Below, piece by piece: positions 1-62,651 of a stretch of 64,000 nt of DNA. The notes under the pieces were generated by a model. It saw only the letters and a program-made list of their open reading frames with translations, did no database searches and was not told the origin of the DNA. Each line of letters begins with the position of its first letter. Position 1 is the stretch's first letter. A program made the translations under genes and the position numbers. The stretch is from Protoeuglena noctilucae (lineage: Eukaryota): contig OY253685.1 of the NCBI GenBank assembly GCA_958009085.1, forward strand, positions 620,001 through 684,000. The letters are read 5' to 3'.

Positions 1-1911
1 GCAGTGACGGTGTGGGTGTCCGTGCGGGTGGGGTTGGTGAGGCTTGTCTAGCTCAAGCAAACAGCCCGACATTCAACCACTCCGCCATGCACTCACCGAC
101 CGTCTTGGCGTTCAGCTCCACCCGCATCTGCTGCAGCGCAGTGACAGCACGCTTGAGCACGTGGGGCGGGGGGTGGTGGGTCTCCAGGCGAGTGGGCAGC
201 TCCCTGCGATCGTGCATAGGAATGGGAACAACAGAATTAACAATATCAGTCATATTTGTATCAATCTCCACATGGTAGAGTCTTTCAACTAGCAACATAA
301 CCTCGCCTGAAGGCGTCGATGGCGGCCTGGTCAGCGTCGCGGAAGTTGTCGTGGGGGAACTCGTCGTAACGCTCCCACGTGCACTCGGAGTAGGGCCGGC
401 CGCGCCACTGTGGGAGATCCAGTGTTACTTTGTCATCACCACCGATCGCTGCAACAAACATGCAGCGGGAAACGCAACCCATTACATCTGCAGAGCGGGC
501 CCATCCATCAAACAACCCATCCGCCCCATCCAACCCAACCCCAATCTCACCTTGACCAGGAAGTACCGCACTTTGCGCTTGACCGACCGCTCGTATTCCT
601 CGGACTCGCCCAGCACGCGCTCCGCCTCCAGCCACTCGTCCTGGCACCCCAGCCCGGCCGCGAACTCCTCATCTTCCGATACCTTCTTGATGAAATTCGC
701 CACCAGCTGACGCCGCACGGGCTCCAGGTCTGCCCTCGCCACCCACCGCAGCTGGCGGTACGACCGACCCTTCACCTTCACCAAAAATGTCTCTGGCAGC
801 GAGAGCGGCTGCGCGTCCAGGATCACGTCCACCTCGTTCAGGTCCAGCTCCTCCTCCTCCCACCGCATCAGCGCAGGGGGCTCGTCGGCGGCGGGCGGTG
901 CGGCGGCATCGGCCGCGGCTTGCTCATGCCCCGCCCCCTCCTCTGCACCCTTCCCCGGCCGCCGGCCCTCCTCGATCAGAGCCCCGCTCGCGTCCCGCAG
1001 ACCCCACTCGTCGTCAAACACCTGCCGGGGCTGCAGCGCCGATCCCTGGCGCAGGGCGCGCGCGTTGCCGGCCATGTACGGCGACGTGCGGACCGTGGCG
1101 CCACCGCGCCGCGCCGGACGCGGCGAGCGGAGCGCCTCCTCGTCCCCGTCTTCATCGTTGTCATCTTCCGCATCCGCCGCGGCGCCGTCCGCCGCGCGGG
1201 GCGCGTCCCCGCGCTCGGGAGAAGCGTCCTCGTCGCGCGACGCCCCCTGCTCCGCCGCTTCCTCTGCTGTCCCGTCCGAATCGTCCCCCGCCGCAAATCC
1301 CGACCTCGCCACTTCGGCCGCGCGGCGCTGGGAGGGCTGCCGGACCGGCGCGCGCGCAGAGGCTCGCCCCGCGCGCCGGCCCCGCTTGTCCTCCGATGCG
1401 CTGGACTGCTGCCACGCGCCCTCGTCGGTGTCCTCCGAATCATCATTGACTGCAGGCCTGCGAGGCGCGGTCGGAGGACGCGCGGGGTCGCGCCGTAGAC
1501 GCGGCGCCTTTGCCGTGCCCAGCGCAACCCTGCTGTGCCTGGCGCGACTCACTCCGAGGCCGAGTCATCGTCAGACTCCTCCGAAGCGGCATCGAAGTTG
1601 TACTTTACGGGCTTCCGATCCCGGAGGGATCGCTGGGGAGCCTGGGAGCGAGCGAATCGAGTCGCGGGTTCCAAACTGCTGGGAGGGTCGATCGCCGGGC
1701 CCAGGCGCGGGGCAGGAAGCCCGGACATCATCCGGCGCCGACTGAAGGCGAGAAGGTCGCCACATCGCGCCAGTTCGCGCGCGACGCCCCTCACCTTGCG
1801 CTCCCGGGCATTCTGCCTTGCCACGCGCCCCCGGGCCCTCCTGGCCGGGCCCTCCGAGGATTCCTCGTCGACCTCCTCGATCTCCTCCGAGTCCGAGAGA
1901 TCGCGCACCAT
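1..1911 (-). CDS. Tandem chromodomain protein (CHD-remodeller-like N-terminus); spliced, 3' end runs off the window
   Basis: Acidic/basic disordered N-terminus (MVRDLSDSEE, ATG 1911), then two chromo motifs: ETFLVKVKGRSYRQLRWV and AERVLGE...YFLVK|WRGRPYSECTWE. GC-AG intron 204-306 joins AIDAFR|ELPTR. No helicase domain visible inside the window. Confidence 0.7.
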
Positions 1912-2165
1912 CCGGAGCCCCTCTCCAGGCGCTGCGCGAACACGCCGCGGCGCGGTCTGCCTGGGCTCGGGCTTCGCTCTGCTGCTGGGGTCCACTGCCT
2001 TCCGAGCGAACGCCTGTCAGTGCGCTACCAGGCTGAGGAACGGGAGGGCGCCGCGACAGCTGTTCACGCCGCAGCAAATCCCTGCGCCTGGCTGTTTCCT
2101 GCGTCCAGGCGCCACTCGTGATCTCGGGAGTTTGCGCAATCCGCCGGACAGTTCCTGCGGCAGCG

Positions 2166-4861
2166 ATGGACTCAGCCATGGACATCGACTGCCTGGACCT
2201 CGATGGCTTTGACGACGCCGAGCGGACGTTCGTCGCGGCCGCGCGGCGCAGCGCCGTGCTGAGGGAGGCGAGGCGCGCTTGCCAGCCCCGTTTGGTCACC
2301 AACGGCGTCTTTCATATGCAAGGTCTCGCTTACACAAGTAACCGATGCGCTGGGTGTTGCGCGCGCAGGTCCAGGCCCCAGCGTGCCCAGCACGACATCT
2401 TCCGCACAGCGCCGCTGCCAAGCGACCGGACCCGTACTTCCAGCATCCGCAAGCTGCTCCTCATGTCGCACCTGTGACGCAGCCGACGTCATTCCCCTCT
2501 CCCCAGGCAAGTTCGCGCGTGCATTCGCTCCAGCAGCCATGCTGACCTGCTTTCTCACTCCCCAGCTATCCTTCCCGCAGCCCGTCCCGCCCAAACGACT
2601 CATTCCTGGTCCCGCTGGCGTCCTGCAACTCGCGCGCCTCCGCGGCAAAGCCGTCGCGTCCCTCGGGGAGCTGGAAGCGCTGGCGCTCAGCCCCCACCCG
2701 GCGACCGCCGCGGCACCCGCATCCACGCCAGGCTTGACCAGGCGAGACAACAGCTAGGACAATTGTATACCTCCTCAGCAACAATGCTGGTCTTTTGCCG
2801 CTGCACACGTGCCTAAAATGCGCTGCTGCAGTCTCACTGCGCCCTTTCTCTTCACTCCCAGACCTCCCCCGGACGCGGCGTTCGAGAGCGCATCCTGGGC
2901 AGAGGGACTGCGCATCGCCGGGATCGATGCGGAGGATTTTTTCGGTGAGCTGCGATGCGGCCTATGTTGCCTCACGTTTGGCATGGGCGGAGCATACTGT
3001 AGGGGCTATACAGTCAAAATACCAGGGTACCACAGTATGCGTGGGATGTCATAGACGCCGCTCGCAGTCGACGGCACGCGTGGCCACCTGTACCCCGCAG
3101 TCGCGTCCCTAACCGTCGACTCCCGGCCCCAAAGACGGACCCCCCCTGACCCCATCTCGCGCGTGCGGAACCCCGCGTTTCCGAATGCCAACCGGGCCCG
3201 TCTCATGGTGCTGTACGTCGCGGGCGTGTTCCAGTGCGCAGCGGGAGACCTGAGGATGACGGTCAAGGTGACAACACGTGCCGAGAGCAACGTATCACGT
3301 TTAGTACTACCAATACCAAGCTGCGGCCACGCACACAACGTGCGAGCTGCTCGTAAATCTCGCAAGCATCTCATGGCCCACCCTACCCGTACCACCCCTT
3401 CTCACTCACCCACACTGGCCCATCCGCCCCCCTCGCCCACTCACCCCCACCCACCCCCACTCACCCTCCCAGGACCCGACGGGCACGATGACGGCCGCAG
3501 CGACGGCCGAGGTGGCTCGCCGCCACAAGCAGGGCCTCGCGCCAGGGGCCACGATCGTGCTTCGGGATGCCGCGGCAATCGGACTGGCGAACGCGGGCCG
3601 CCAGTATCTGTGCGTATCGCTGGGCAACGTGGTGGCGGTGGTGCCTCCGAGAGGCCACGCGGGGAGGGCAGACCTGCGGGAGTGCATGGGGCGGTTCGGC
3701 AGCCCCTCGTCGCCACGCAACAAGGTAATGGGTTGGGCGGGGGGCCGTGGATGCGGATGCAAATGCTTTTTTAGGATGCTTTTCTGCGAATGCTTTTGTT
3801 TCCAGTGTTCGCACGGCTTTGCTCTTGTCGCATATATGAGCCTTGTTATATCACCGATACTGCACCTGTATTGCTCATGATTGTCTTGAACATCTGCTCC
3901 CATGTGTATGGATGCACTCACCCTTCGGTTGCCACCCCCGCAGTCCTTCCTTCATCCAGACAGCCCCATGGCTGGCAGTGAGCTGGAGGGTACCCCTGTG
4001 CGTGACTGGGCGATGCAAGGGGCGACTCAGCACCAAAATGAGATGGGTGGTCATGACATGGCGACTCATGGGATGTGGAATCGTGGGATGGCTGCTCATG
4101 AGACGGCAAGCCACGGTCATGACATGGCGACTCATGGGATGGCGAGAGATCCACCATCGACAGCAACAGCGTGGGACCATGGGCAACCACATCCCAACCC
4201 CTGGGGCAATAACCCTCCGATGTCAGACCGGGGGTGTCAGAACGACGATGCGGGTTTCCCAGAGTTCCTTGATGCTACTTACGGGCCTGGTGCGGCACAC
4301 GAGCCGGCAGCTGGGGGCTGGCGGGGCATCGTGGGCGGTGGTCGTTGCGATGGCCTGGGGGTAACTGATACTGTGGTCGGTGCTGATGGTGGTATGGGTG
4401 TGGGGCAGGTCACAAGAGCAGGGGTTAGTATGGGGTATACTCATCATGATATCTTAGGTGATTTGGTAGGCAGTGCTGCAGTGCGCGGGGGTCACGGGGT
4501 GGGGTCTGGGTCAGGGTCGGTATTGCGAATGGACCACCCAGGGCTTGCCCATGAGGATGATAGTGATGATAATGATGGTGACGAGGACGACGGGAGCGGT
4601 TGCGAGAGCGAGGGAGGATTGGGCGCGGAGGTGGGTGATGGTGGCGGTGGTGGCGGTGGTGTGGAGCGGGGTGACGGTGCGGGGTGTAGCGATGGTGGTG
4701 GTGGTGGTGGCGGTGGTGGTGGTAGTCGACAGAGTGAGAGGGCGGTACCGGTAGCTGGCCAGGTTGGCGGCGGGGGCAGTAACAACCCACGTCAATTTGC
4801 CTCCCAAGCGTCGGGGAGCTCTGGGTACCTTTATGAGGACTCATCCCAAGGCCTGGATTGA
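2166..4861 (+). CDS. HROB: HROB/MCM8IP-like OB-fold homologous recombination protein, about 7 exons
   Basis: LIPGPAGVLQ motif, AFESASW motif, and the OB-fold segment MTVK|DPTGTMTAA...GLAPGATIVLRD...QYLCVSLGNVVAVVPP. Long Gly/Asp-rich last exon. Start codon (2166 vs 2178) uncertain. Confidence 0.72.
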
Positions 4862-4999
4862 ACACATGATGCACTGCGTATTGTCACTTGTTGAACTTGC
4901 CATCTGTGAAGCATGTATGAACATGGCATCTTCGCAATTTCAACCTCGGCCATAGTGCCGCTTGCCACCGCCCTCGCACCACACACACCACGCACACGC

Positions 5000-8631: not shown

Positions 8632-8959
8632 TCCCCAGCCGGCCGGTGTGCAAAGAGGACTGTCCTGTTCGCCGCGAGACAAGCCGTCCGCAAATCCTGT
8701 CGCACCGAAGGCTTGCGTCTGAATTGCTGGGTCTGGCAGGTGCTGAAAGAACTGAAAACTCGCATCAGCTCACGTGCCTGGCGCCGACACTGCTTGATGG
8801 AAGCGTGCAGTGAATGAGCCAGAGACTCTCGTGCCTAGGCAGAACCACGCATGCACGTCGGTGCCGTGGATCGGCTCATGGCTGGCTACAGCGCGAGGTA
8901 GCCCCCACTTAACTCGTTTTCCCAGCTCTCGACCGTCCCCGAGCTCGCATGGGTCCATC

Positions 8960-9445
8960 ATGTCCAAGTCGTGTAAAGGCCTAATTACAGACTTCGTCAA
9001 GTGCATTATGGAGGCAAGAGGGGGTCGCCCCGCGGCTCCGCACTGGGCATGATGCTCGCCGCGCTTTGGATGCCTGATGAGCGCCGTGGAATTGGGAATA
9101 GATCGGCAATTTGGCGCGGCTGACGAGAAATTGCTCATGTTTACGCAGTCTGAATGTTATAGGAGCGGCGGGACGCTGGACGGGTGCAAGCTGAAGGTCG
9201 TGAAGGAGAACCAGGAGTGCGAGGCGCTGAGGCGAGGCTGGGGCCAGCATTCGCTCTGCGCGAGCATGCAGCGTATCATACCCGCACGTATGTCTTCCTC
9301 GCGCCTGTCGATCGTGGCTAGGGCGCAGCGCATCGCTAACCCTGGCGCACGCGGCGCTTTTCCATGCAGGCAGGGGGTGTTTGCGTGCCGGAGGGGCCAG
9401 CTCGACGCTAGGAATCGCATCCGAGGGAACAAGGGATACTGGTGA
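8960..9445 (+). CDS. PET191: Cytochrome c oxidase assembly factor PET191/COA5; exons 8960-9013, 9149-9231, 9370-9445
   Basis: Spliced product MSKSCKGLITDFVKCIME|SECYRSGGTLDGCKLKVVKENQECEALR|QGVFACRRGQLDARNRIRGNKGYW has the twin-Cys pattern and the family C-terminus C(K/R)RGQxDxRxRIRGNKGY. Both introns are GC-AG. Confidence 0.9.
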
Positions 9446-9815
9446 GGCTCGCGTGTGGTCGCAAGCGTGGCATTCGTGGCATTCGTGGCATTCGCGGTCG
9501 GCAATGCGTGTGACCCGTTTCTCCTCTCCGCAGACGCGTCTCTCAGCCGCAGACAAGATGCAGCGCGTGAGGACGTACGTTCGTGGCCATCCGGCTCTCG
9601 TGAGCCAGTGTGGCGCCTTCATTCGCCTGCGGCATCGCCTGGCGGGATGTCCCTTCCACAGCGTCCCGGCCCACGCTGGGGGCGGTCCAGGCGAGCGGCG
9701 CTTGCGCGGTTATGTGGTGTGGTTGATACTAATGATGCTGAAGTCTTATGCGACCGATGGCGGGAGTCGGGATGTCGCTTCGCCGCGACCGCAGGGGCCG
9801 ACGCATCTCCCAGTG

Positions 9816-12800
9816 ATGGTGCTGCGCCTGGCGGCGGCGCTCCCGCGCGCGGCGGACGGCGGCTCATGGATGCCAAGCAAGTGCTTGCTGCGGAACAGAG
9901 CGCGTGGTATCCCCCGCCCGCCGCGCGGGGGCCGGAGGCGCCGGCTGCATCGGAGGATGTGCTTGACAGCACGGGTGCGTCCGCCCCGCGCCCCTCGGGC
10001 CACCGCAGCCGCTCAGCGTGGTGCGCATTCCTCCATTACCTTTGTCACTTGCGTTTGCAGACGACGAGTCGCTCTCGGATCGGCTCCTGGACGTGGAGGG
10101 CCTGCTGAAAGCCCCGGGCATGGACGGCGACCCGCGCGTGCGCGCGGCGATCGAGTCCGGCCGGGCCGACATGGAGAGCGTACTTCAGGCCTTCCCTTTC
10201 GAGCTCGACGCGTTCCAGCAGCAGGCGGTGCGGGAGCTGCTGGATGGACGCTCAGTCGTGGTTTGCGCCCCGACGGGCGCCGGGAAGACGGCGATTGCCG
10301 AGGCAGCGGCCATCGCCTGCCTCGCGATGGGCCAGCGCGCCATCTACACCACGCCGCTCAAGGCCCTCAGGCGAGCGGCGGCGCACAGAAGGAGCACGGT
10401 GGGCGTTTCCTTCCCGCCCAGCGCAACTCGCTGTCCGCAACTTGCCGAGCGACGCATCTAGTGTATCCAAACTGCATCTACTGTAACCAAATGTGACTGT
10501 TGAAGCTCTCTGGTGGCGCCCGCAGCAACCAGAAGCTGTTTGAGATGCGCGCGCGGTTCGGTTCCGACCGCCTGGGCCTTCAGACGGGCGACATCTCGCT
10601 CAACAACGAGGCCGACATCACGATCATGACCACGGAGATCCTCCGCAACATCATGTATCGCATCCAGGTCGAGCGGCAGCGCGGCGGCGACGCGACCTCG
10701 GCTGCGGCGTCCACCAGCCTGCCGCCGGCTGTGGCGACCCAGATGCTCAGCGGCGGATCCTCAGCTCGCCTGGACGACGTCGGGCTCATCGTTCTCGACG
10801 AGGTGCACTACCTGGGGGACCCCTACAGGCGAGCGCGGGCGTGTCACAGCTGTTCGCTTATCTTGCAAAGCTGCGTCTGGTTCTTTAAGCTACATCTTTT
10901 CAACTATTCCTCTTAATAATAAATTGCATTGCGCCCGCGCAGGGGCACGGTGTGGGAGGAGGTCCTGATCAACTGCCCCAAGCACGTCCGCATCCTGGCC
11001 ATGTCGGCCACCGTCCGCAACCCCGACGAGCTCGGGAGCTGGATCAACGACATCCACGGGGACTGCAGCACTGTCAAGACAAGCAAGCGGCCCGTGCCGC
11101 TACTCTGGCGAGTCGGCGGCGAGATTGCAGACGTGCCCTGCACTTGCAGGCAGCAGCGCATCGCTTGCGCAGTGGGTGTGCGGGGAAGGATACCCCTGCT
11201 TACTTCCTTGCTTGTACTATCTACCATTCGTTTCCTCCTTCATTCAGCACTCGATTGCTTTGCGAACAGCTCTCGCACAAGGCTTGTGCTTATCTACAAC
11301 CCAGGGTGCATATCGAAGAAGTGCAGATCCCCTTCTCCCCTACTCGTAGGCAGTTCTGCATGAGGGAGGGCCGCCGCACACGAATGGTCCCCCTGCTCGC
11401 GCCGTCGGGGCGGCAGCTGAGCCGGGAGCTGAGGGCCCCGCAGGACAGACTGCGCGAGCTGGTCGAGGTGAGGGCATGGAGTGGGCGCATTCGTAATGCA
11501 TGGGTAACGACGATTGTCTCGTCGCATTGACAATGACGCTGCCTGCGGTGGGTATGAGTGGCTGCTTCTGCCATGTTGTTATAACTTATTTTTACCGCAG
11601 GAAGCGGGTGGCAGCTGGCAGGAGTGGCGGGGACTGCGGTTCAAGGGCGACGGTCAGGGGCGAATTGAGGACGGGGGCAAGCCATGGAGCCTGTTTGACG
11701 AGCGCATGGCCGAGGTGAGAGTAGCTTTTATTGAGTGAGATGGATCACCCAGGGGCTTGATTGACGACCGCATGGGCGAGGTGAGAGAGTAGCTATGGGT
11801 ATCTATGCTAGTTTGCCCAAAAACGCGTTTGACTGTCATCCACGTCACCCTTTCTATTCCTCAGATGGTAGTACTATCTAAATCAGACACATCTATATCG
11901 AAGCACACAATAATGCCGCTCCCATCCCCGACTCCTCATCTAAGCACACGTCCCTGTCTCCCTCATTTCACTCCCCAGGCCCCCATCATGCGCTCCGCCC
12001 GAACAAACATGTTTGTCGTACCCCCATTCCTTTTCTAAGACCCCTATGTCACCCTCATCTCACTCCCCTCTGTCCAAACACACAACCCTGTCGCCCTCAT
12101 CCCCTTTCCATACCCACACACACCCCTATCACCCTCACCCCCAGGCCCCCACCATGCGGTCCGTCCCCCCCATGGACGATGTGATCGAGGAGCTCCGTTC
12201 CCGACAGATGCTGCCCGCCATTTGGTTCGTGTTCTCCCGGAAGGGGTGTGACGCGGCGGCCGCGCAGATCGCCAGGGACTGCCGGGCGCTGGTGACGGAG
12301 GCAGGTGAGAGAGTGGATGAGTAAAGATGGCAGGGCGCTGGGTCATGGTACGATGTGATTGAGAGAAGGCAGTTGCAGGGCATTGGTTATTGCACCTAGA
12401 CTCCGACATTGTCGTTACTTTTGCCATCAACACCCTCGTTGAGACCCCACTCATCAACTCCAGCCCCACCACTCGCACCCAGAGCGCCGCGCGATCGAGG
12501 CGGAGGTGTCGCGCGTCCGGGAGACGCAGCCCGAATGCCTGCGCCCCGACGTGGTCGGCCTGCTGAGTCAGGGCATCGCGTCGCACCACGCGGGGTGCCT
12601 GCCGGGATGGAAGGCGCTGGTGGAGAGGCTCTTCCAGCGAGGGCTGGTGAAGGTCGTCTTTGCCACCGACACGCTCGCCGCCGGCATCAACATGCCCGCC
12701 AGGACCACCGGTGCGGAAGCGATGCGATCTGTTTATGATGTATGGTTGTTGACATGGCTCGCTGGGTTTGGTCGATATCATGTTTGATCCATCCGACCCC

Positions 12801-15800
12801 GCCGCAAGTTTGCATCACATCACGACTAATGACCCCGCATCCCATCTCTTCCATCTACCTCCCGCACCCTCCACATCCCCCCGCAGTCATCGACACCCTC
12901 TCCCGCCGCCGCGGCGCCACCCCCTTCCAGCGCCTGACCCACAACGAGCTGCTGCAGATGGCGGGGCGCGCGGGCAGGCGCGGCTACGACACCGTCGGCC
13001 ACTGCGTGTTAGTGCAAGGCCGCTTCGAGGGAGCGGATGAGGCGTTCGAGATTATCTCATCGGGACCGGAGGCCCTAGCGTCTCAGTTCACCGCTGGCTA
13101 TGGCATGGTGCTGAACGTGCTTGCGACGCGGACGCTTGACGAGGCGCGCGCCTTCTTGGAGAGGAGTTTCGGTTCGTATCTCTCTGGAAAGGGCCTGGCG
13201 GCTAGGATGAGGGAGGTGGAGGGGCTGGAGCAAGAGGCGGCTGAGGCGATGCGGCGGCTGAGGAAAAAGTACAAGGGACTGGGGGCGGGGGTGGGGGGGA
13301 GCGAGGAGGCGAAGAGAGAGGCGAGGTGAGGGGTTTGGGTGGGCGAGGGGTGGGTTGGGGGTAGCATTGAGGGTAGCAGTGGGGGTGGGAGTGAGGGTAG
13401 CAGTGAAGGTGGCGGTGTGTTAGTTGGGTGGTGGTGGGAGTGAGGGTGGCAGTGAGGGTGGCAGTGGGGGTAGCAGTGAGGGTGAGGAAGGAACCATTCG
13501 CATTTTTTCTGCCCATTATTGTTACCAACAATACACCAATCACTTTCTCCTTACCAGTAAATCCTCCACTGCCCCTCACCCCCAGGCGCCTCCAGTCCCG
13601 TTACGCCGACGAGAGTCGAACCCTCGACCTCTTGGAGAGCCAGCTGACCGAGGCAGCGGGGGAAGACCTCTTGGCTGCTTTGGCAGACGAGGAATCGGAT
13701 CTTTGCATGCCGAGGGTGGTGGGGCTGCGGCTGCCGGGGCCGCAGGGTGCCGTGCCGGCGCTGGCGATGGCGGTCGTGCCGGTCGACCAGATCACGTGTC
13801 TGAGCGAGGTGAGAGGTGTGGCGTGGGTAGGTGAATGAGTTTACATGGGGTGAGATTGCATGTATTTAGTTAGTGACTACTTACTATGAGCGGGCTTTTT
13901 TTTTTTTTTTTAGTAGTCACTAACTAAATGACGGTTGCGGTCCAGATGTCCTCTACTCACGCTCTCTCCCGCAGTTGCCTTCCGGCCATGAGCCCGCCTC
14001 TCTGCGCGGTGGCGATGCGGAGGGCGACAGCGGCGACATCGATGGGGAGAAGGAGGAGGGGTCAGGTGGGGACGGCAGAGGGAGTTCGCTGGTTGTTCGT
14101 TCACTACTATCAGTTGGTTGCAAATCCCCTCAAGGACCATTGTTGTAGTACTATCATCACTCGATGATAGTACTACAAGAGTGATGATGCACTCCATGAC
14201 AGCTAGACTTACTTCCACAACAATCAATCAATCAACCAACCAACCAATCATCACTCAATTGATAATCGCAGGTTCCTTGGATGATGACGAGGAGGACGAC
14301 GACGATAACAACATCAATAACGACATCGATAAGTATACCGATAACGACGACGCGACAATCGACGAGTCCGAGTCGTCCATATCCTGGCAGGAGCGCCTGC
14401 TGTGCGTGCTGAGGGACGGTCGCATTGTGGCAGTGACGCCGGACATGGTGGTGGCGGTCATGAGGGAGGGGCAGCCAGAGCTTGGGGGGGCGACGGCGGC
14501 GGTGGCTGAGTGAGTGGTGGGTGGGGGTGGTGGGGGTGTGGGGTGGTAGTAAGGGTGGTGGAGGTGGTGGTGGTGGTGTTGTGGTAGTAAGGGTGGTGGG
14601 GTTAGTGGTGTGGGGCAGTCACAGTGTGAGTGGGGTGTGGGGTGTGTAAAGGCGGTGGTAGCAGGGTGAGTGTCATTGTTGGGTTATCATCTCATCCCCG
14701 CCGTATCACCTTTTCCCCTTATCACCTTATCCTCGCAGGCATCTGGCGTCCCTGCCAGAATGGGATTTCAGGCCCTGGGGCGCCGATGCGGGGGGCAAGG
14801 GGTGGGCGGTGACGGGCACGGCAGACCGGAGAGGTGAGAATGCGGGATGTGGTGTGATGTGTGCATGATTGCAGGTTTGAAATGTGGAGGGTGGGTCGCA
14901 CACACAGGAGAGCATGGAGTGCCCATCCATTACCCACCCCTCCATGCACCCCCCCCTCGCATCCCCTTACCCCAACCCACCCCTCACACCCCACCTTAAC
15001 CCCTCTCCACCCCCCCCAGCCCCCCCCGTCGCCGTCCTCGCCCCGTCTGCCCCCTCCCGCACCCTCGGCCCCCTCATCCCCGCCTCCCTGACCGCCATGG
15101 ACCCCGCCCCGGTCCCATCAGCCCTCGCCGCATCCGTCGAATTCCAAAAGCGCATCGTCGATCGCGTGCTGAGGGAGCTGAGGGCGGTGGATAAGGCCGG
15201 GGCGGAGAGCATGCCCAAGCTGCCGCCCAAGGCCGCCAAGAAGCTCGCACGGGCCAACCGACTCATGAGGTGATTGCGAAAGATGTAGGTATCTTATATA
15301 TGACCATAGAGTATCATATGTTATCCTCATCCTCTCCCACCTGACATGCGACCCGACACCCAGACCCCTCCTCTCCCACCACCCCCCAGCCACCCCAACC
15401 ACCCCTCCAACAACAAAACTAATAACTTTCTATTCCTAATCCCCCCCCAGGCGCGCCGAGCGCATCCGCGAGGAGATCGAGGAGGACCGCGCCCGCACCT
15501 GGCGATCCTTCGAGGGATCGCTGACCGTGCTGCGGCGCATGGGGGCGGTGGAGCACGATTTGCGCGAGGGACGTGCTGTGGCGACCGCCCTGGGGGAGGT
15601 GGCGAGGGAGGTCCGGAGCGAGAACGAGCTTTGGATGGCGATGGCGCTGACCGGCCCGGCGGCCCAGGGTTTGCCCCCGGGGGCTCTGGCGGCGTTCGTG
15701 TCGTGTCTGACGGCGGGGGACGTGCTGGGGACCAAGCCGGGGGTGCGGTGCAGTTATGCGCCCACGGAGCAGGCGAGTGGGAGGGTGGGATGTGTGCTTC

Positions 15801-16299
15801 TACAGCGTTGCGACATTATCGATAGTAGCTCCTGCCTCCCTTCGCAGGTGGTGTTGGCTGCGGAGGCCCTGGAGATGTCGCGGGTTGCATTGGAGGATGC
15901 GCAGTCGGAGGCAGGGATCGCGGGGCCGGGGTCGACGGTGGCCATCGACGCGAGGCTGGCGGGGCTGGTGGAGGTGAGAGTGATTGCGTTTGCTGTTATT
16001 TCTGGCGTCTGTGGTTTTGGTTGCAGTCGCGCCAACGTCGTCACCCCACCATCACCGCTCACCCACCGTCCGTGCCCACCGCCCACCCCTCCCCCCAGGC
16101 CTGGGCAGCCGGCGCGTCGTGGGAGCAGATCACCAAGGACACGACGGTGGACGACGGGGACCTCGCGAGGCTGCTCTCTCGCGTGGTGGATGTGCTTAGG
16201 CAGGTGGCTCACTGCCGGCACCTCGACCCCAACATGCGCGCCACTGCCCGGGCCGCGGTCAAGGCCATGGTGCGGCAGCCCATCTCGGACCTCCTCTGA
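9816..16299 (+). CDS. ISE2: Ski2-like DExH-box RNA helicase, chloroplast ISE2 type, about 17 exons
   Basis: [92 protein letters not shown]-like end [18 protein letters not shown]. Arg/Ala-rich transit-peptide-like first exon. Confidence 0.88.
13357..13487 (+). repeat. Degenerate 12-bp intronic minisatellite (GTGAGGGTRGCA)n
   Basis: Repeated gagggtagcagt / gagggtggcagt / gggggtagcagt units in ISE2 intron 13326-13585. Confidence 0.75.
13864..13929. repeat. Perfect 18-bp inverted repeat enclosing a T16 tract, intronic
   Basis: atttagttagtgactact (13864-13881) and agtagtcactaactaaat (13912-13929); T run 13896-13911. Confidence 0.9.
14143..14178. repeat. Perfect 16-bp palindromic hairpin with 4-nt loop, intronic
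   Basis: ttgtagtactatcatc-actc-gatgatagtactacaa. Confidence 0.9.
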
Positions 16300-45545: not shown

Positions 45546-48500
45546 ATGTCGCAGCCTGCGCCCCAGGCCCCTCTTCCGCCGGAAAAGTGAGAATAAGACA
45601 GCGAACATCTGCAGTGCCTAGTCAGTGTCACACTTCGCCCCGTTTGCCGCCGCTTCACGCGCCACGCTCCCGCTGATTCTCTCCCAACACTCGTACACAC
45701 TCGCCGCGCTCTCTGCAGTGTCCGGTGGTTCTACTATACCTTCCCGCTGGAGGCCCTGAACAGCCCCAAGGGCTCCAAGATTCTCCCCGCGCAGTTGGCA
45801 TCCGACGTCTGTCCCAAGGTCTGTCACTGTCTTCGAGCACCATGCACACGTCGTAACTCACTGCCTATCTAACTACTTAATAACTTATCTCCCACTTCAT
45901 CGCCGTGGCAACTTCTTCCGTCGCAGGGCTGCGTGCTCCCCTTCGCGTATCAGGAGTCGCTGGTCTTGGAAGCTGTGCACCGCCAGCACCCAAGCGTGCG
46001 TGCCTGCCCCCAGCGCGGCCACAAGGCGCCCAGTGCCACGGCATACACGGAATGGTGACGGTTGCGATACAAGAATGCAATTGGAAATGAATGCGATTGG
46101 AAAGGATGTGCAGCGTCGACTGTGTTTGGCCCAAGCGCCGCCTAGGCTATCAGCTCCCTGCTATTGGCTAGCTATCGGCCCAAATATGCACTGCACACCC
46201 GCCAATGCGCTCATCCACTTTCAGGAACTCGCGAGCGGACCAGCCGACCGAGCCCGGCACCGACTGCCCCAAGGTGTGCGTGAGGGGCGCGTTGTACGAC
46301 GCCCTGCTGGGGAGGCGCGAGATGGAGGCGGCGTACTGGCCAGGGTCCACGCACGCCATCGTCAGGGGCACGTGGTTCTGGTGAGGGTGGCAGGGTGATG
46401 ATAATGCGCTGTAGCTAGCTGCCTGTCACGCATGGCACGAACACCGTGCCATTCCCGCAGCAACGCCTCCAAGAAGGCTCCCAAGAAGGAGAAATGGGTT
46501 CCATTACGGGAATCCTTAGCAGATAAGATCGAGGAGATATGGGCGTCGAAGCCGTGGGTGCAGGGTCTGTCTGACGTGGCCCTGACCACAGCGGCGGGGG
46601 CGTGGGTGGTGTCGTTCCGAGGAGAGGGGGAGGTGTACCTGTCAGCGCAGGTGATGGGGTGTGTGGCGATGTGAGAGAAAGGGAGGGGGTTCAGTGATGA
46701 GTGTACCGGTCGGCGCAGGTGAGGGTGAGGCGATGAGAGAGAGAGAGGGTGTGGTGATGGGTGCCCTGAGTGGGGGTGACCTCCATTTACGAAACCCAAC
46801 CTTGCTGTGACCTCCAGGAGCCCTCGGCCATGGACAGGCTCAAGGGGTTCTTTCGCATGAAGAACGCCTCCAGTCTGCCGCCGGGAGCCATGGCCATCAG
46901 GCGAGAGCAACACGCAATGCGCAACGTGCAATGTTTCACGGCCGCCTCCCTGCCGCCACAGCGTGCGTCTGCTGCTTTGCTGCTTCCATTGCAGTCATAT
47001 CTCTACTCTCGCAGAACCCCGCTGCCCCTCTCACCCCACCGCCCACCCCAAACACCCCGCCTCTCCTCACTCGCAGGCGCGGCCTGGACACCTCCTGCCC
47101 CACCCCCCTGGGCTTCGATCTGGATGTGGACGAGTACGCGTCCAAGACGCCCGTCACCCACCTCGTGTTTACTGTGCACGGCATCGGGCAGAACCTCCCC
47201 TACACATCGACGGTGTGGAGCGACTCCAACGCCCTTCGGCGGCGCATGGTGAGGGGTGTTGGCGTGGAGTAGTGTTGCAGAGGGTGGGTTGCAATGCTTG
47301 GTGGGTGCGTGTTGGGGGGGAGTGGCATAGCAAAGCGGGGTTGGCGGCAGTCGCGAATAAAACAGAGGTCAATGACACCGCAAGCAAATCCACATCGATA
47401 CGCTCTCCCCTCAGTTCGCCTTGGCGGGCAAGCACATCCCCGCCGACGTCGCTGCTGCGGGGAGGGTCGAGTTCATCCCCATCAACTGGCGCAGCGCCAT
47501 CACCCTCGTGAGTGGCATGCATGGTATCTGCATGCAGCGTGATGCTGTATCCCGGCCCACTGCCTCAGTCGTTGATCCCGCTTCGCTTGCCATATGAAGT
47601 GCAGCCATTGGGACATATGATGGCGGCTGACCCTGGTTGACACCAGCTGGCCCATGAGCTATTTATGCTACAAGCACTCGTGCTGTTTCACTTATGTGCG
47701 TCTCACTAACATCGTCGTCGTCTCTGTCAACCGCAGCCGAGCGATGACCTCGTGCCCCTCGTGTCGCCCCAAGGGGCCGCCAATCTGCGATCCCTCATGG
47801 CCAACACCATGCACGAGGTGCTGGCCTACATGAGCCAGCCACAGGTGAGTGCAGATTGTGGTATTTTGCACAGAATGTGGTACACTCCCTCATTACCGCT
47901 CAGGTCAATGCTACCCTCACTCACTCACACCGCCACCCTCACCCGCCCACCCACACCACTGCAGGCACAGCAGATGGTCCACTCCCTCACCGCCACCCTC
48001 AACCGCGCCTACGCCAAGTTCAATTACCGCCACCGCTCCTTCCAAGGCAAGGTCTCTATCCTCGGCCATTCTCTTGGATCCGTGATGTGCTATGACGTGC
48101 TTTGCAACCAGCCGAGCCTCTACGCCAACCTGGGCGTACCCACCCGCCCCGCACCATCAACCAGCATCCACTTCCCCGCCCTGGCGTTCCCAGGCGAGTC
48201 GATGTTAATGTGATTTACGATGGAACATGATAAGCATGATAGTAAGAGAACATACACAGCACGAACACATGCGTGATGCGTCGAGCTGTGAGCCGTCAGT
48301 TGATGTTACTATCATCACTAATGATAGTGCGTAATCTGAGGTGATATGTGTACTATTTACGCTCCTTTTGCCCCGCAGTCGACAACCTCTTCCTCCTGGG
48401 CAGCCCCCTCACCGCCTTCCTCTCGCTGCGCGGGTGCAACCCCGCTGCCCCGGGAGCGTCCCCCACCACCCTCGGCATTCCCAAAGACAACAACAACAGC

Positions 48501-50109
48501 AGTAACAACAGTGTTAATGACAACAGAGTTCGCAGGGAAGACTCCCGCACCTCCATCGCCAACGCCCGCACCCCCAGCACCTCACAAGCCACCGCCGCCC
48601 ACGCCACAGCCACTGCCCTTGACGCGAGAGCCCCCGCCGGCCCCACCGCCCCGCACCCGCCCCCGCACGGCTACGGCGGCGTCGGGGACGGCCTGCCAGC
48701 TGTGCGCCGGCTGTGGAACGTGTTTCATCAGTATGACCCAATCGCCTATCGGGTAGAGCCCTTGGTGGATGTCGCCATGAGCGGGACGGCGGTGGTGGAG
48801 ATGCCGCGGGTGCCGCGGTCAGCATACGACGAGGTGAGAAAGGTGGTGTCCCTTTGGGTGTGCCAAACACCTCGCGCAGCACGTTCTCCCAGCATCCCCA
48901 TGTCACACATCACGCAGCACGTTCCCTTCCGCCCCCGCCCCCCGCAGGCGCTGGGCAGCGTGTCCGACAAGCTGTCCTCAATGCTTCACATGGCCAAGTC
49001 GACCATCAAGGTTGGGGATGCTGCCGTTGAAGCCGAGGAGGCGGCGGCGGAGGCGATGGACGCCGCGCAGCAGAACACCAGGCGAGCGGTGGGAGAGTTG
49101 GATGGGTGCATTTGATGATCGATGAATGGATGGATTGAATTGGATGAATTCAGTGAGTTGCCAATACCTCACTGTGAGTATCACTCACTTGTTCTCTCTT
49201 GGCTGGCTCATGCGCTGGTCAGGTGTGAAGGCCTTTCCTTGTCGCAGGAGCACGGTGGAGGAATTCGAATTCGCGACCGGGGACCTCCCCGGGTCGGAGC
49301 GGCGAGGCAGCGTCCCGGCCCCGTCGCTGCTCGCGTCCCGGGCCACCTCGGCATGGCGTGTCACGGTGAGATGGGGATCGTGCTGAGGACAAGACTGCCT
49401 GTTGATTGCGCTGCTGATGCATTGTGGATGGGACTGCCTTGGGTTATTGTGCTACTCCCTTGCGCACCCACAATTCACACAACACCCGAGACTCCCCCCA
49501 CGCCACCACGCCACCATTCCATGCCACACACAGCGCAACCCACTCCCGCCCTGCCCCCAGGGCGGCCTCCCCACCGCCCAGTCCCTGGGCCCCGACTGCG
49601 CGTCGATCAGCAGCGTGCAGGGGCGCATCGACGTGGCTATGCCACCCGACTCGTCCAACTCCATCGTGCAGGCCATACGCGCTGTCAGGGCGCATACGGG
49701 GTACTGGTGAGTGTGCGCATACGGGGTGGTACTGGTGAGCGTGTGCATGTGGGGTACTGGTGAGCGAGATTGTACTTGTCTTTATTGCTCGTGGTCGTGG
49801 GATCAGTGTATGGGAACGTTTGGGGCATGGTCCGGGCACAGGTGAGCCAAGCGGCATGGTGCGCGGGCGAGCGTTGCTGGGGCTAGTGGTACACTGCACT
49901 GTGTCACCGCTGATCGTCACCCTTGTTGGCCGCAGTGAGAGCAACAGCGTAGTACTCGTCGTCACTCTTAATCGTCACCATTGACTGTCACCTATGTTTG
50001 TCACCTCTGATACCCACTCCATGGTCGCAGTGAGAGCAACAGCGTGGCCCTCTTCCTCGCCCGCGTGTGCTACGGCATCGACCCTCTCGCCAAGACCAAA
50101 GCAGCGTGA
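45546..50109 (+). CDS. DDHD-domain phospholipase A1 (PA-PLA1/SGR2-like)
   Basis: VRWFY, VRGALYD...YW...IVRGTWF, THLVFTVHGIGQNL, VEFIPINWR, lipase motif ILGHSLGSV, NLFLLGSPL, NVFHQYDPIAYRVEPLV, GRID...AHTGY. Confidence 0.88.
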
Positions 50110-56849: not shown

Positions 56850-59561
56850 ATGGCGCAACTCGAGATTCAGGCCACGGATGTCATCAAGGCGACCGATGGC
56901 TGCGGCTGCCATCTATACCGCCTTCCCGTTGTCGGGCGACCTAGCATCGGCGCCGATGTCGGCGACAGACGCCTGCACTCGCCGGACCGTGACGCGAGCT
57001 GCCCCGATGCTGCCCCGACGCCGCCCGCCAGACACCGCCCCCGCTCCCTGCGCGTGCAGGTCATCTTGCAATTCTGCAAGGAGAACAACCTCATGCAGAC
57101 CTTCGAGGCCCTGCAGAGCGAGTGCGGCGTGTCGCTCAACACAGGCGCGTGGGCCGTGCCCATGCCCCGCCGCTTTCTGCGGCTCGTGGGGATGCCAACC
57201 TCGGCCCGCGTGTTGCCCTTGCAGTGGACTCGCTGGAGCAGTTCGTGGCCGATGTGCAGAAGGGTCGATGGGAGGTCATCCTCCCACAAATCCAGTCTTT
57301 GAAGCTCCCGGCCGAAGTCATGTGGACCTTGTACGAGCAGATCGCCATGGAGCTCATCGAGCTGAAGGAGATCGAGGCCGCGCGCGCCATGCTACGCCAG
57401 ACCCAGGTGACCTGAGCGGCTCTGTGTGTCTCGAAGGCACAACGATGACACGGCTCCGGTTCGCCTTGTCGCATGCTGCGCTGGGCAAGACTGATTTCCA
57501 GCCGCCGGGCGCGCACGTGGACATCGCTTAGGGAGTCAAGGGTTTGTATAAGGGTGCCCCGATTTGGCGCTCCTCAATGCTTGCGCCACGCATCATGAAT
57601 ACGCAGGTATTTCAAACGATGAAGTCCGAGGACCCCGAGCGGTGCGTTCGGTTGGAACGACTCACCAAGGAGGCCTATGCGGATCTGAGGGACCTGTACG
57701 GCATTGGGATGACGAAGGTGCGTGCGGAGCGTGGCACAGCAGCGGGCGCGGCTATTGCAAGCAGGTTCGCCGCAACCACGTTGCATCTGCGGTCGCAGGA
57801 CAAGCGGAGGGCGCAGCTGGCGCAGAGCCTGAGTCAGGAGGTCGTGGTGGTGCCCCCACAGCGACTGATGTCACTGGTGGGGCAGGCGCTTAAGTGGCAG
57901 CAGCTGCAGGGCATGCTGCCGCCGGGTGCGGCCTTCGATCTCTTCAGGTTCGATGCGGCTAAAGGGGTTGTTACCTTACACATTTTTCACGCACCCCCAC
58001 CCGCATACGCATCGCATCCCATGCAACAAGCGCCACGCATGGCGTCCCCACCCCTGACCCATCACAGGGGCACAGCGCAGTCCAAGAAGGACGAGCAGGA
58101 AATGTTCCCGAGGGATCTGGACCGCACGATCAAAGTGGGATCGAAGAAGTCCCACCCGGAGGTGGCGCGATTCTCGCCGGACGGCCAGGCACTCGCCACC
58201 GGCTCCGTCGACGGCTTCATTGAGGTTTGGGACTACATGACGGGGAAGCTCAAGACGGATCTGCAGTACCAGGCGGAGGAGATGTTTATGATGCACGACA
58301 CGCCCGTTCTGGCGCTCGCGTGGTCGCGAGACTCGGAGCTCCTGGCGTCAGGTGCGCGCTTGAAACGCAGCCCCTCGTGCAGCATAGCGGGCTCTTGGCG
58401 ATCCCCAGGATTGCCATTGGTATCAGCGGTGGCTGGGAGTCGTCTCAAATGTCGCAAATGGATCGCAATGGGTGCTGGCTGCAGGGTCCCAGGACGGGCA
58501 GGTCAAGGTGTGGCGTGTCAAGACCGGCCAGTGCTTGAAGAAGTTCGAGCACGCGCACACCGAGGGCGTCACCTCGCTGGCCTTCTCGCGCGACAGCACC
58601 CAGGTGAGGCCCTGAGAGGAAGGCTCTACCGTGCCTTGCGCCTGAAAAGCCGCGAGCGCTGTGCGGCACAGACACCGACAGGCTGAGCTCATCACCATGC
58701 CATCGATCGATTCCCTTACAGGTCCTGTCGTCTTCGTTCGACGGGACGGCGCGCGTCCACGGCCTCAAGTCGGGCCGCCTGCTGAAAGAGATGCGTGGGC
58801 ACGGGAGCTACGTCAACGGCGCGGTGTGGAGCGCAGACGGGGGCAACGTGTACACGGCTTCGTCGGACGGCACCGTGCGCGTGTGGGACGCCAAGACGTG
58901 CAAATGCATGCACACGTTCGCGCCGCCTGCCTCGGCTGGGACGGAGCCAACCGTCAACGGTGAGGAGCGTCGTCGTCGCGCTGCGCCAGCTGCGAGCCCT
59001 GCCGCTGCTGGCGGGTTTTTGCTTATGAAATGCTTTTCAGCTGAGATGTACATTCAGTCGACGGATGTCTGTATACAAGCTTGCTCTGAGCTAGCTCTGA
59101 GAGAGCTTGGATTTGATTCCCCTCCCACGCGCACGCAGACGTCCACCTGCTGACGGCCACGTCCGTGGCTGGCGCGGAGATGCTCGTGTCCACGCGGTCT
59201 CCCGAGGCGTTCTTGATGAACGCGCAGGGCCAGGTGGTCAAGACGCTCGCGAGCGGCAAGCGGCAGGGGGGCGACTTCCTGTGCTCCCTCGTCACGCCCC
59301 GCGGCAAGTACATCTACTGCCTGGGCGAGGACTCGACGATCTACTGCTTCTCTTCAGAGGTACGTGATCGACTGCTGCCATTTACAGGGACTATGGCTGT
59401 GCTCGGCGGTCAACAGCGGTCCCTTTTCTCCGCAGACGGGCAAGCTGGAGCACATCATCAGCACGCACGAGTCGGGGGCGATCGGGATGACGCTGCACCC
59501 GCACCGGAACATGATCGCGACGTGGGGAGAGGACGGGACCGTGCGGACGTGGGTCGCGTGA
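56850..59561 (+). CDS. SMU1: WD40-repeat spliceosomal protein SMU1
   Basis: LEIQATDVIK|VILQFCKENNL...SLNT|VDS (LisH/CTLH), LYEQIAMELIELKE, VVPPQRLMSLVGQALKWQQ, FSPDGQALATGSVDGFIEVW, DLQYQAEE, HPHRNMIATW. Confidence 0.96.
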
Positions 59562-59680: not shown

Positions 59681-59685
59681 TGTAA
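59681..59685 (+). promoter_or_regulatory. Possible chlorophyte polyadenylation signal TGTAA
   Basis: TGTAA 120 nt after the SMU1 stop codon. A short motif, so a chance match is plausible. Confidence 0.3.
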
Positions 59686-59837
59686 GCAAACAAGCCGCGA
59701 CGCCACGCTGCGCCACGTTCCCCGAGGAGCCTGCGCCCACGTCGCGCGAATGGCGCTTGAGGGGCCGGCGACCCTGAAGGCAGTTTCTATGGGATCACGT
59801 GCGGCGACTGCGAACGAGTAGTGGGTTCGGGTCGACT

Positions 59838-62651
59838 ATGGCGCCGCAGGCGAGAGGCTTCAGGTTCCGAGTGCGTCGACGAGCTCGCTTGGCCAGTCGT
59901 CCGATTGTCGCGCTGCAGCGCTGCGTCGCAGGGCCTCCGCAATCCGAAAGCGAAGGGGAGGAGGACGCCGTCCTTACCCGAGGCCGCGAGCCTCGGATCC
60001 ATCGACGAACATGATTTGCTCCTGCCAACGGTGGAGTCGCACGGCAGCGCTTTCGGCATCGCGTCGCCCACCCGGCTTAGCTTGGGTCAACAGCCATACG
60101 CTGGCCCATCGGGGCATCAACATGACCGCGAGGCGCAAGAGCACGCAGAGGGGGACCGAGACCCACACACGAGCCATGGGTCCGGCAAGGTGTGTCTCCG
60201 TGCCATGCCGCAGAGACAGCCCTGTTCCTTCCTCCCGGCGACACCGATGGGGACGTGCAGTGCGGCTGTGCATCATGCAGACCCAGAGTGTGCTTGGCCC
60301 CTGCAGTCGGGCACCGGGCGAACGATGGTCAACATCTGCATCAGCTTCGTGGGCTCTGGGATCCTAGGCCTGCCCTACGCCTTCTCCAAGGGCGGCATGG
60401 TCCAGGGCATCGCCATTATGGCCGCCGTGGGCGTGGTTGCTTATCACAACATGATGAAGCTTGTCGCATGCAAGCGGAAGGCCGCCAATCGCGACGTGCA
60501 TACCTACAGCGAGCTCGCCGCGCACTACCTGGGCCCGTGGGTGCGTCCGGGATTGCTGATGGGTTATGCCTAGTTGACGAATGCATCACACCGGTGTTCG
60601 TGTGGTGACAGTATAGTGACCAGTGTGCTTTGGCATTACCGCCCCTTCCCTAATCGTCTTTGCAGGCCCGGGCGGTCGTGGAGGCGGCCATCGTGTCCAG
60701 CCAGGCGGGCTTCTCGATCGCCTACATGCTGTTTATCGGGAAGAACATGTCTGGCATCACGGGTGAGAGCTTGGTGGGAGCGAGGCAACGAGCGAGTCGT
60801 GGTACATGGCAGCATGGGCCCCCTGTTAGGGCCCACACGCTGCCCCATAGACTCGTCTTCGCAGCCTAATCCTTGTAGCCCCATCGCACCCCTTCAGGCC
60901 TCCCCGGCTTGCTCCTCATCACTGTCTCTGAGCTTCCCAACCCCAATCGCCCCCCCCCCCCCCCTGCCCCCAGGCCTCCCCGGCTGGCTCATCATCGCAG
61001 TCTGATCTTCCCCAAATCCCAGACTGATCTTCCTAACCCCCATCGCCCCTTCTCTCAGGCCTCCCCGGCTGGCTCCTCATCACTGTCACTGATCTTCCCA
61101 ACCCAAATCCCAGACTGATCTTCCTAACCCCCATCGCCCCCTTCAGGTCTCCCCGGCTGGCTCCTCATAGCAGCCTGCGCCCCCGTGGAGATGGCCCTCG
61201 CCCTCGTCCGCTCCCTCACCTCCCTCGCGCCCTTCTCCCTCATCGCCAACGCCGCCAACCTCATCGGCGCCCTCGTTGTGCTCGCGGAGGACGTCCAGCA
61301 CTTCCCGCAAGCCCCCGGCATCCACGCATGGGACACGCGGGGCTTCACGTTCCTGTTCGGGGTGTCCGTGTACTGTTTCGAGGGGATGGCGATGGTGCTG
61401 CCTCTGGAGGACGCGGCTAAGGACAAGAGGGCGTTTCCCAGAGACCTCGCGATCGGATTGGCGGGCATCACGGCGCTGTACGTGTCCTTCGCTGGGGCGG
61501 GGTGAGACGCGGGGCTGTTGGGGGTTGGATGAAGTGAGCTGGTTGCTGCGAGGGGTGAGGTGCGTGGCTGCTTGGGGTGAGATAGGGGTGAGAGGGGAGC
61601 TGCAAGGGGTGAGATGCGTAGCAAGCAGGGACAGCTGCGTGCGCAATGGCAGCAAAGCATTGGCAGACCGCCTGACGCCGACGCCAGCGGTGTCGGTGTT
61701 CTAAGAAGGGTTCAACAGCGATCGACGGCACTCTCGCAGGTACTGGGCGTTTGGTGCGGTGCAATGACAAAAGACATCATTATGCTCAACATCTTTGTAT
61801 CCTCGCAGGTACTGGGCGTTTGGTGCTGAGACGAAAGACATCATCACGCTCAACATCTCAGGGCGTGCGGGGGCGTTGGTCCAGACGTGCCTGAGCGCGG
61901 GGTTGCTGCTGACCATGCCCATCATGATGGTCCCATGTGAGCCGCATGCAAGTGATGATGATAGTCCCACGTGAGCTGGGGTTTGACTGGATTCAGAACG
62001 GTCATGTCGCTCACCGTAACGTCAGACAAGAGGGGATAGGATCCAATAGGTTCTGACAGACTTAGCACACCCAGCGCTTTCTTCGCTGCTACCCAGGTTA
62101 CGAGATTTTCGAGCGGTCGATGCTCCAGGCCCCGCTCAGCAAGGGCGCGGAGGGACACGTGAGGCTGACCGTGTTCCGGCTGACCCGGGTGCTGGCGGTG
62201 GCGGGGGTGGTGACGGGTGAGGGCTGCGGGAGTGGCAGGGTTGCAGAGCTTGCGCGCTTGTTGGCCGGCCTCTCACCAACTTGTCAACAAGGCTTGCAAC
62301 ACATTCCTATCCTCCTGTGACCTGCTCCCTCGTTCCGCTGCCACTTCCAGGCCCCCACGTTCTCCGTGTCCCTCCCTGCACCCCGCAGCGTCGCTGTTCA
62401 TCCCCTCTTTCGGGGCACTGATGGAGCTGATTGGGAGCGTGTCGTGTTCCACCCTCGCCTTCGTCATGCCACCCCTGATCGAGCTGGGAGCCAGCAAGAA
62501 GGACCTGCCCATCCCCTCCATCATCCTGAACGTGCTCTACATGCTCGCGGGGGTGTACCTGGCCCTCACGGGGGTCGCCGATGCCGCAGCCAACATGTTA
62601 TCGGCAACAGGCCACCATACCGCACCTGCCCCATCTGGCACCCACGCATAG
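59838..62651 (+). CDS. Amino acid transporter (AAAP/Aa_trans family, ANT1/AVT3-like)
   Basis: NICISFVGSGILGLPYAFSKGG, TYSEL, SQAGFSIAYMLFIGKN, RSLTSLAPFSLIAN, FGVSVYCFEGMAMVLPLE, GYWAFG..TKDIITLN, IPSFGALMELIGS. Confidence 0.9.
60891..61175 (+). repeat. Four tandem copies (about 75-90 bp period) of a splice acceptor plus exon start; only the last copy is coding
   Basis: cagg(c/t)ctccccggct(t/g)gctc(c/a)tcat at about 60895, 60971, 61056 and 61144. Confidence 0.9.

Follow-up and report, generated by a model that had tools for sequence, protein, structure and literature searches.

Do introns that begin with GC instead of GT form an unusually large part of the gene structure in this stretch of Protoeuglena noctilucae DNA and, if so, what permits them? 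The stretch (contig OY253685.1, positions 620,001 to 684,000; called the window here, with coordinates counted from its first letter) is 64 kilobases (kb) long, and a first-pass annotation of its sequence had listed 20 GC donors for introns that end in AG. All 20 coordinates hold G and C at intron positions +1 and +2 on the strand given, and its counts of sixteen donors beginning GCGAG and of 19 out of 20 preceded by an exonic AG were both confirmed. We observed that such GC-AG introns are removed from RNA and make up about 20% of the introns in the window; the phenomenon is real.

Spliced sequence fixes four of these introns, with donors at 9691, 15773, 17649 (minus strand) and 38990 (minus strand). 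RNA contigs came from four marine metatranscriptome runs; 20-37% of the words sampled from 2001-12000 are present in them, matching the expectation for exons alone. Shifted within their stated ambiguity, the 15 listed joints of these contigs comprise 12 GT-AG and 3 GC-AG introns, each of the three GC-AG joints being present in 4/4 runs. The fourth intron was placed by a database protein of 468 amino acids (P0122), which was found by a search with an ABC1-kinase exon and equals the spliced translation at 468/468 residues. This match needs the removal of three GT introns (40431-40577, 40073-40318 and 39688-39882) together with the GC intron 38820-38990.

9691..9794, plus strand: GC-AG intron in the 5' part of ISE2 (an ISE2-type DEAD/DSHCT helicase gene), cag/GCGAGC; RNA joint in 4/4 runs; absent from the first-pass list
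15773..15847, plus strand: GC-AG intron in ISE2, cag/GCGAGT, 75 nucleotides (nt); RNA joint in 4/4 runs, DSHCT profile continuity, gapless with 10 homologues
17371..17649, minus strand: GC-AG intron in an alpha carbonic anhydrase gene, cag/GCGAGG; RNA joint in 4/4 runs, Carb_anhydrase profile continues across
38820..38990, minus strand: GC-AG intron in an ABC1-kinase gene, cag/GCGAGC, 171 nt, in frame and stop-free; match to P0122

At 9691-9794, GC..AG is the sole canonical placement inside a 4-base ambiguity, and 17371-17649 ends in CT..GC as read on the plus strand. The first-pass annotation had proposed spliced RNA as the check on its donors, and the contig joints at 15773 and 17649 (minus strand) do use the GC donors that it listed.

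Beyond this set, splicing at nine GC junctions brings back conserved sequence without a gap, or the continuous numbering of a profile or PDB structure.

9014..9148, plus strand: GC-AG intron 1 of a PET191/COA5-like gene, gag/GCAAGA; models from Trebouxia and Chlorella align at the N-terminus and the Pet191_N numbering fits
9232..9369, plus strand: GC-AG intron 2 of the PET191-like gene, gag/GCGAGG; exon 3 matches Pet191_N 50-67 of 67
10371..10525, plus strand: GC-AG intron in ISE2, within TPLKAL/SNQK (helicase motif Ia); gapless and invariant in 10 homologues, DEAD profile
10829..10942, plus strand: GC-AG intron in ISE2, within GDPY/RGTVWEE; gapless with 10 homologues
11108..11349, plus strand: GC-AG intron in ISE2, ctg/GCGAGT; PVPLLW/QF gapless at the junction in 10 homologues
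32397..32501, plus strand: GC-AG intron in a TLC ATP/ADP transporter gene, aag/GCGAGT; TLC profile continuity
46901..47076, plus strand: GC-AG intron in a DDHD-type phospholipase gene, cag/GCGAGA; the junction rebuilds xRRG, gapless in 10 homologues
48194..48378, plus strand: GC-AG intron in the DDHD gene, cag/GCGAGT; F-VDxLFLLGSPL gapless in 10 distant homologues
57145..57224, plus strand: GC-AG intron in the SMU1 gene, cag/GCGCGT; PDB 6q8j_A numbering

The spliced ISE2 model shows no gaps against 10 homologues at 10370/10371, 10828/10829, 11107/11108 and 15772/15773. This includes the junction peptides KALSNQK and DPYRGTVWEE, which had been proposed from the sequence, and the donor at 11108, the only listed one without an exonic AG. 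The PET191-like model (8960-9013, 9149-9231, 9370-9445) is a complete 70-amino-acid open reading frame (ORF) with exon 3 in register, residue 3 of that exon being residue 49 of the spliced protein. Across 32397, the TLC profile ends at about 264 in the preceding exon and begins again at 265 in the next. The exon before the 48194 intron carries GHSLGS, read-through meets a stop, and the next exon matches from DDHD profile position 6. With the DDHD exon 47078-47248 as query, a homologue search found nothing beyond P0121, an unspliced ORF of the window itself; a second search had the unspliced ORF P0242 as its top match, and its distant full-length matches gave the junction alignment. In SMU1, the upstream exon runs to residue 41 of 6q8j_A (SLNT) and the downstream exon starts from 43 (DS), with the split codon as residue 42, in agreement with the proposed SLNTVDS.

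The frequency of GC donors was assessed with an exon/intron dynamic-programming parser that combines codon log-odds, a donor matrix omitting +2 and an acceptor matrix; both matrices were trained first on the 15 RNA joints and, in a second round, on GT introns alone. When GT, GC, GG and GA donors were allowed equally, this decoy parse recovered 12/15 RNA joints and, blind to the list, 16/20 listed donors (9232 with a wrong acceptor). It accepted 72 GT, 25 GC, 12 GG and 3 GA introns. Requiring at least 10 bits in both flanking exons left 47 GT, 11 GC, 3 GG and 1 GA, and at least 15 bits left 33, 8, 1 and 0. The motif AGGCGAG occurs 33 times in the window, compared to 13.7 +/- 4.3 in shuffled sequence (0/100 shuffles reach 33), and AGGTGAG 41 times, compared to 8.4 +/- 3.0. 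The decoy motifs AGGGGAG (21 vs 12.1) and AGGAGAG (14 vs 7.8) are mildly in excess over the shuffles.

A parse restricted to GT and GC donors on the true strands gave 110 introns, 81 GT and 29 GC. Curation removed 10 GC and 1 GT for conflict with RNA, bridging of genes, great length or a very weak donor, and added 5 GC and 2 GT from RNA or homology. The curated model holds 106 introns, 82 GT and 24 GC (23% GC); an extra GT intron, 9975-10060, was spotted after this count. Counting only the 13 supported GC introns against 13 + 82 GT gives a conservative floor of 14%. The earlier estimates of 100-130 introns and a GC-AG share of about 15% compare with 106 introns and 23% in the curated model. 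ISE2 has 17 introns of which 5 are GC, not 4 of about 16 as first read, and the donors at 9014 and 9232 belong to the separate PET191-like gene. GC-AG introns thus exceed some 10% in the GC-rich DNA of the window both in the curated model (24/106) and among the listed RNA joints (3/15).

The other 11 GC introns of the curated model, 7 from the first-pass list and 4 new, come from the parse or from weak homology.

56889..57059, plus strand: probable GC-AG intron in SMU1, aag/GCGACC (weak donor), 171 nt, in frame and stop-free; the LisH match begins right after the acceptor
204..306, minus strand: GC-AG candidate in a chromodomain gene, cag/GCGAGG; ab initio parse
2268..2580, plus strand: GC-AG candidate in place of 2507, gag/GCGAGG; ab initio parse, in phase with PVPPKRLIPGPAG
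2742..2861, plus strand: GC-AG candidate in an HROB-like gene, cag/GCGAGA; ab initio parse, read-through meets a stop
23315..23509, plus strand: GC-AG candidate in a coiled-coil gene, cag/GCGAGT; ab initio parse
28494..28584, minus strand: GC-AG candidate in a PANTS-like small gene, aag/GCGAGT; ab initio parse
28868..28988, minus strand: GC-AG candidate in the PANTS-like small gene, gag/GCGAGG; ab initio parse, next exon from PANTS-like profile position 19
43520..43780, minus strand: GC-AG candidate in an ENTH gene, gag/GCGAGA, new; ab initio parse
43886..44173, minus strand: GC-AG candidate in the ENTH gene, cag/GCGAGA, new; ab initio parse
49082..49247, plus strand: GC-AG candidate in the DDHD gene, cag/GCGAGC, new; ab initio parse
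59850..60306, plus strand: GC-AG candidate in an amino-acid transporter gene, after a 4-codon first exon; ab initio parse, the weakest of the set

The 20 listed introns therefore divide into 3 with spliced sequence, 9 with homology or profile continuity, 7 with parse or weak homology, and donor 2507, which failed. An acceptor-like tract precedes 2507, whose phase does not fit the conserved downstream exon (PVPPKRLIPGPAG); the parse uses the GC donor at 2268 instead. A GCAAG donor at 48047 in the first parse was judged wrong and replaced by hand. At 56889-57059 retention is possible, and the first 13 amino acids may resemble the SMU1 N-terminus. The candidate at 49082-49247 lies in an unconserved stretch and is therefore beyond homologue testing. 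No usable coordinates came from Pfam searches with the short exons of the PANTS-like and HROB-like genes and of parts of the DDHD gene.

The two classes of intron differ in donor context. In the curated set, the full consensus AG/GYGAG is present at 20/24 GC donors compared to 24/82 GT donors (Fisher p = 3e-6), and an exonic AG lies upstream of 23/24 and 44/82, respectively (p = 7e-5). Put the other way, GC accounts for 45% of perfect-context donors and 6% of imperfect ones. The RNA joints taken by themselves show a perfect context in 3/3 GC and 3/12 GT cases (hand-computed probability 0.044). This agrees with the first-pass suggestion that an exonic AG and GAG at +3 to +5 compensate for the C. 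GC introns have a median length of 160 nt compared to 172 nt for GT introns, both classes have a GC content of 0.60, and acceptors of both consist of a C-rich tract followed by (G/C)CAG. No resemblance to the U12-type donor (TATCCTT) was seen among the 24 GC donors. As in U2-type GC-AG introns, the intron with its GC..AG ends is absent from mature RNA, the donors are compensated and the acceptors are ordinary.

We think it probable, at about 0.75, that these are ordinary U2-type introns in which C at +2 is tolerated within a full-consensus context and has been raised in frequency by GC-biased substitution. A C at +2 would mean the loss of one base pair with U1, and later U6, small nuclear RNA (snRNA), a loss that would be tolerated only when -2, -1 and +3 to +5 pair fully. 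Position +2 would then be near neutral at strong sites, and it looks nearly neutral there because the 45% share of C lies near the C/(C+T) of 0.56 inside introns. GC-biased substitution would push T to C toward the neutral ratio (45% C seen, 56% in intron interiors), and at weaker sites selection would retain T (6% C). GC pressure, which the first pass had also suggested, is a plausible driver on the strength of these two values, and published cases in other GC-rich algae are explained likewise (PMC4028052; bioRxiv 10.1101/2024.10.30.620910). The first-pass interpretation as a whole, which includes a putative relaxed recognition of +2, is supported in part.

Several points weigh against this explanation or narrow it. 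The sample is the 64-kb window, and the rate applies to it and not to the genome. The four RNA runs all belong to one study, and the contigs on 1-20000 contain 34 joints whose composition is taken from the 15 listed, so that absence from the list is not evidence. The 11 GC introns from the parse or weak homology are nearly half of the 24. The contrast in donor context is inflated because curation partly used donor strength, although the RNA-only set points in the same direction. Pairing with snRNA is the inferred part of the account and draws on what is established about 5' splice-site recognition. One RNA contig (X2, record 6) has the upstream introns spliced and then continues for 68 nt into the 10371 intron (10371-10438) to its end, which may be a retained or unspliced form. 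Finally, in four chlorophycean ISE2 metagenome loci, one of them 69% GC, 21 of 23 ends of high-scoring segment pairs (HSPs) abut GT and 0 abut GC, as judged by eye, compared to 5/17 GC in the ISE2 gene of the window (hand-computed p ~0.012). A high GC content may therefore not be a sufficient cause by itself.

The chlorophycean counts, 21 GT and 0 GC at 23 HSP ends against 5/17 here, are what a lineage-specific change in the splicing machinery would lead one to expect, for instance a variant U1 with a base able to pair with C, or changes in the contacts of U6, U5 or U1C; GC pressure by itself would in that case not be the cause. The 45% share of C at perfect-context donors is also unusually high. 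However, the strict perfect context is the prediction of an unchanged U1 with one tolerated mismatch, and a U1 that pairs with C should permit GC in weak contexts too; we regard such a change as unlikely. A different proposal, compatible with tolerated C at +2, is that GC-AG introns are kept as weak, retention-prone regulators. It draws on the contig that runs unspliced through the 10371 donor, on the two GC introns of 171 nt that are in frame and stop-free (38820-38990 and 56889-57059), and on the link between GC donors and intron retention given for Emiliania huxleyi in the available part of that study (PMC4028052). Contigs cannot measure splicing efficiency, though, the host genes are unrelated housekeeping genes, and the positions, lengths and composition of the introns are like those of GT introns, which makes a regulatory role very improbable.

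We give hardly any credence to the idea that the GC donors arrived with recent introner-like mobile elements carrying their own splice sites. The related ISE2 protein P0016 is encoded by a single intronless ORF, compared to 17 introns here, as recent insertion would predict, but an all-against-all blastn of the 106 introns found no repeat family. The 20 matches (10 reciprocal pairs) were short and of low complexity, and none involved a GC-AG intron. Just as implausible is an artefact in which wrong junction models hide a true GC-AG share of about the usual 1-2%. It can point to the 11/24 GC introns that come from the parser or weak homology, to the 3 GG and 1 GA decoy introns that the parser yields when flanks reach at least 10 bits, and to the failure of listed donor 2507. 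Against it, spliced sequence fixes four junctions and continuity with homologues or profiles supports another nine, 13 of about 95. Tolerance of C at +2 in a full-consensus donor, raised by GC-biased substitution, thus remains our preferred explanation.

High GC-AG frequencies are already known from other algae. In Emiliania huxleyi, 56% of 241 manually mapped junctions are GC-AG, ascribed to GC content in the available text of the report (PMC4028052). This haptophyte resembles the present case in its GC-rich genome (~65%), its very common GC donors and its unchanged AG acceptor, but it belongs to another supergroup, reaches 56% compared to about 20% here and also uses GA donors (4%) (PMC4028052). 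In the available sections of that paper we noticed no report for Emiliania of the strict context dependence seen here (PMC4028052). Among pelagophytes, the portion of a preprint available to us gives ~14-17% GC-AG for Aureococcus anophagefferens and ~14% for Pelagomonas calceolata, with GC content blamed (bioRxiv 10.1101/2024.10.30.620910). These algae are likewise marine and GC-rich with a similar share; they are stramenopiles with 0.19-0.92 introns per gene and figures from gene predictions, whereas the window is intron-dense, with 17 introns in ISE2 (bioRxiv 10.1101/2024.10.30.620910). The same portion gives 0.3-2% for plants and animals (bioRxiv 10.1101/2024.10.30.620910). Our introns share with the U2-type GC-AG introns of plants and animals the GC donor, the normal AG acceptor and the major spliceosome, but their frequency is ten to fifty times higher. 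In animals and plants, as here, the rest of the donor consensus of GC-AG introns is reinforced. The abundance of introns also recalls the introners of the marine picoalgae Micromonas and Aureococcus; introners, however, form sequence families, and the 106 introns here show none by blastn.

Our literature search found no report of GC-AG frequency for the green lineage or Chlorophyta, although a paper on this assembly may exist, and a search aimed at the nuclear introns of pedinophytes yielded nothing about their nuclear splice sites. No such GC-AG outlier was seen in the available part of a survey of 121 plant genomes (PMC6310983). One may ask whether the window represents a third separate origin of high GC-AG, after haptophytes and pelagophytes, in which T and C at +2 are free in consensus sites and the cause is a lineage-specific change in 5' splice-site recognition and not GC alone. 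That cause is suggested because equally GC-rich chlorophycean orthologues keep GT; we hold this reading only tentatively, as a minority possibility.

The window has a GC content of 65% and is a dense packing of intron-rich eukaryotic genes, with very strong codon periodicity and a GC content at third codon positions (GC3) of ~0.9 in RNA-supported exons. Pfam searches with exon translations identified a chromodomain protein, an HROB-like protein, a CUE protein, the ISE2-type DEAD/DSHCT helicase, an alpha carbonic anhydrase, CREG/DUF2470, DnaJ and a PANTS-like small protein. They also identified a TLC ATP/ADP transporter, HVA22, an ABC1 kinase, ENTH, a NIPA/EamA transporter, SMU1 (LisH and WD40), an amino-acid transporter and a fibrillin; the DDHD lipase and the PET191-like gene were later additions. 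An Rfam scan of the window gave no family at threshold and no snRNA gene. The top matches to its proteins come from chlorophyte green algae. A quick maximum-likelihood tree of ISE2 puts the window in one group with P0001, P0016 and Pedinophyceae sp. YPF-701 (Shimodaira-Hasegawa-like approximate likelihood ratio test (SH-aLRT) support 100), and YPF-701 is also the top named match for the ABC1 kinase (71%). Judged by these sequence comparisons, the DNA is probably the nuclear genome of a GC-rich, intron-dense marine chlorophyte whose ISE2, in a quick tree of one gene, groups with a pedinophyte. A metagenome scan for close relatives of ISE2 reached a top identity of 59-73%, with no near relative for a comparison of orthologous introns.

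We also made a number of observations on ISE2 and its surroundings. The PET191-like gene (8960-9445, plus strand) lies directly upstream of ISE2 (9540-16299, plus strand), and in database proteins of Trebouxia and Chlorella sorokiniana (P0014, P0020, P0063) Pet191_N is fused to the helicase. The adjacency seems to be kept in core chlorophytes because the Trebouxia and Chlorella models carry both, and the fusions look like mis-fused annotations. P0016, a 1269-residue protein and the closest ISE2 relative after P0001, is encoded without introns at L001:5746-9552, a metagenome contig of 69% GC; intron density differs sharply within the clade, because the window's ISE2 has 17. Chlorophycean ISE2 loci (L007, L008, L018, L023) carry a GT intron directly behind TTPLK; it lies 8 nt before the position of the window's GC-AG intron after TTPLKAL+AG, which could reflect intron sliding or independent gain. 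At 14270-14360, ISE2 encodes an Asp/Asn-rich acidic insert (24 protein letters) in AT-rich codons within a GC3-rich gene; a similar insert is present in P0001 and in the pedinophyte protein, and other chlorophytes are without it. Some 65 nt downstream of the donor region of the ISE2 intron at 11715 lies another copy of it (...cgcatgg(g/c)cgaggtgaga; 11690-11790), and RNA contigs of X1 and X3 carry before 11700 a 255-nt loose end without a match in the window. At 2604, RNA contigs of two runs begin to match and continue rightwards, preceded by 255 unrelated letters and with no AG acceptor there; they may be chimeric or come from the conserved PGPAG stretch of another organism. Elsewhere, an open exon of 855 amino acids (51801-54365, minus strand) lies where the window is richest in GC (73%), matches nothing in Pfam and adjoins the NIPA/EamA transporter exons. 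The intron end at 51268 has a very strong acceptor whose donor was not placed.

For annotation, gene finders that accept GT alone would mis-model about 1 intron in 5 here and damage most multi-intron genes. Errors of this kind are already visible in the unspliced ORFs P0121, P0123 and P0242 and in the fused PET191-ISE2 models of related algae. Since 38820-38990 and 56889-57059 are in frame and stop-free, prokaryote-style callers read through them (P0123). The window also gives a clean picture of a rule, with near-free choice of T or C at +2 where the context is perfect and hardly any at other sites, and so offers a natural test bed for the base pairing needed at a 5' splice site and for the erosion of a near-universal signal by GC-biased substitution. 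In conclusion, GC-AG introns at the level of Emiliania and the pelagophytes would be the first case found in the green lineage of a phenomenon already known in other algae, and their main value lies in annotation practice and in a clean natural case of context-dependent tolerance of C at +2.

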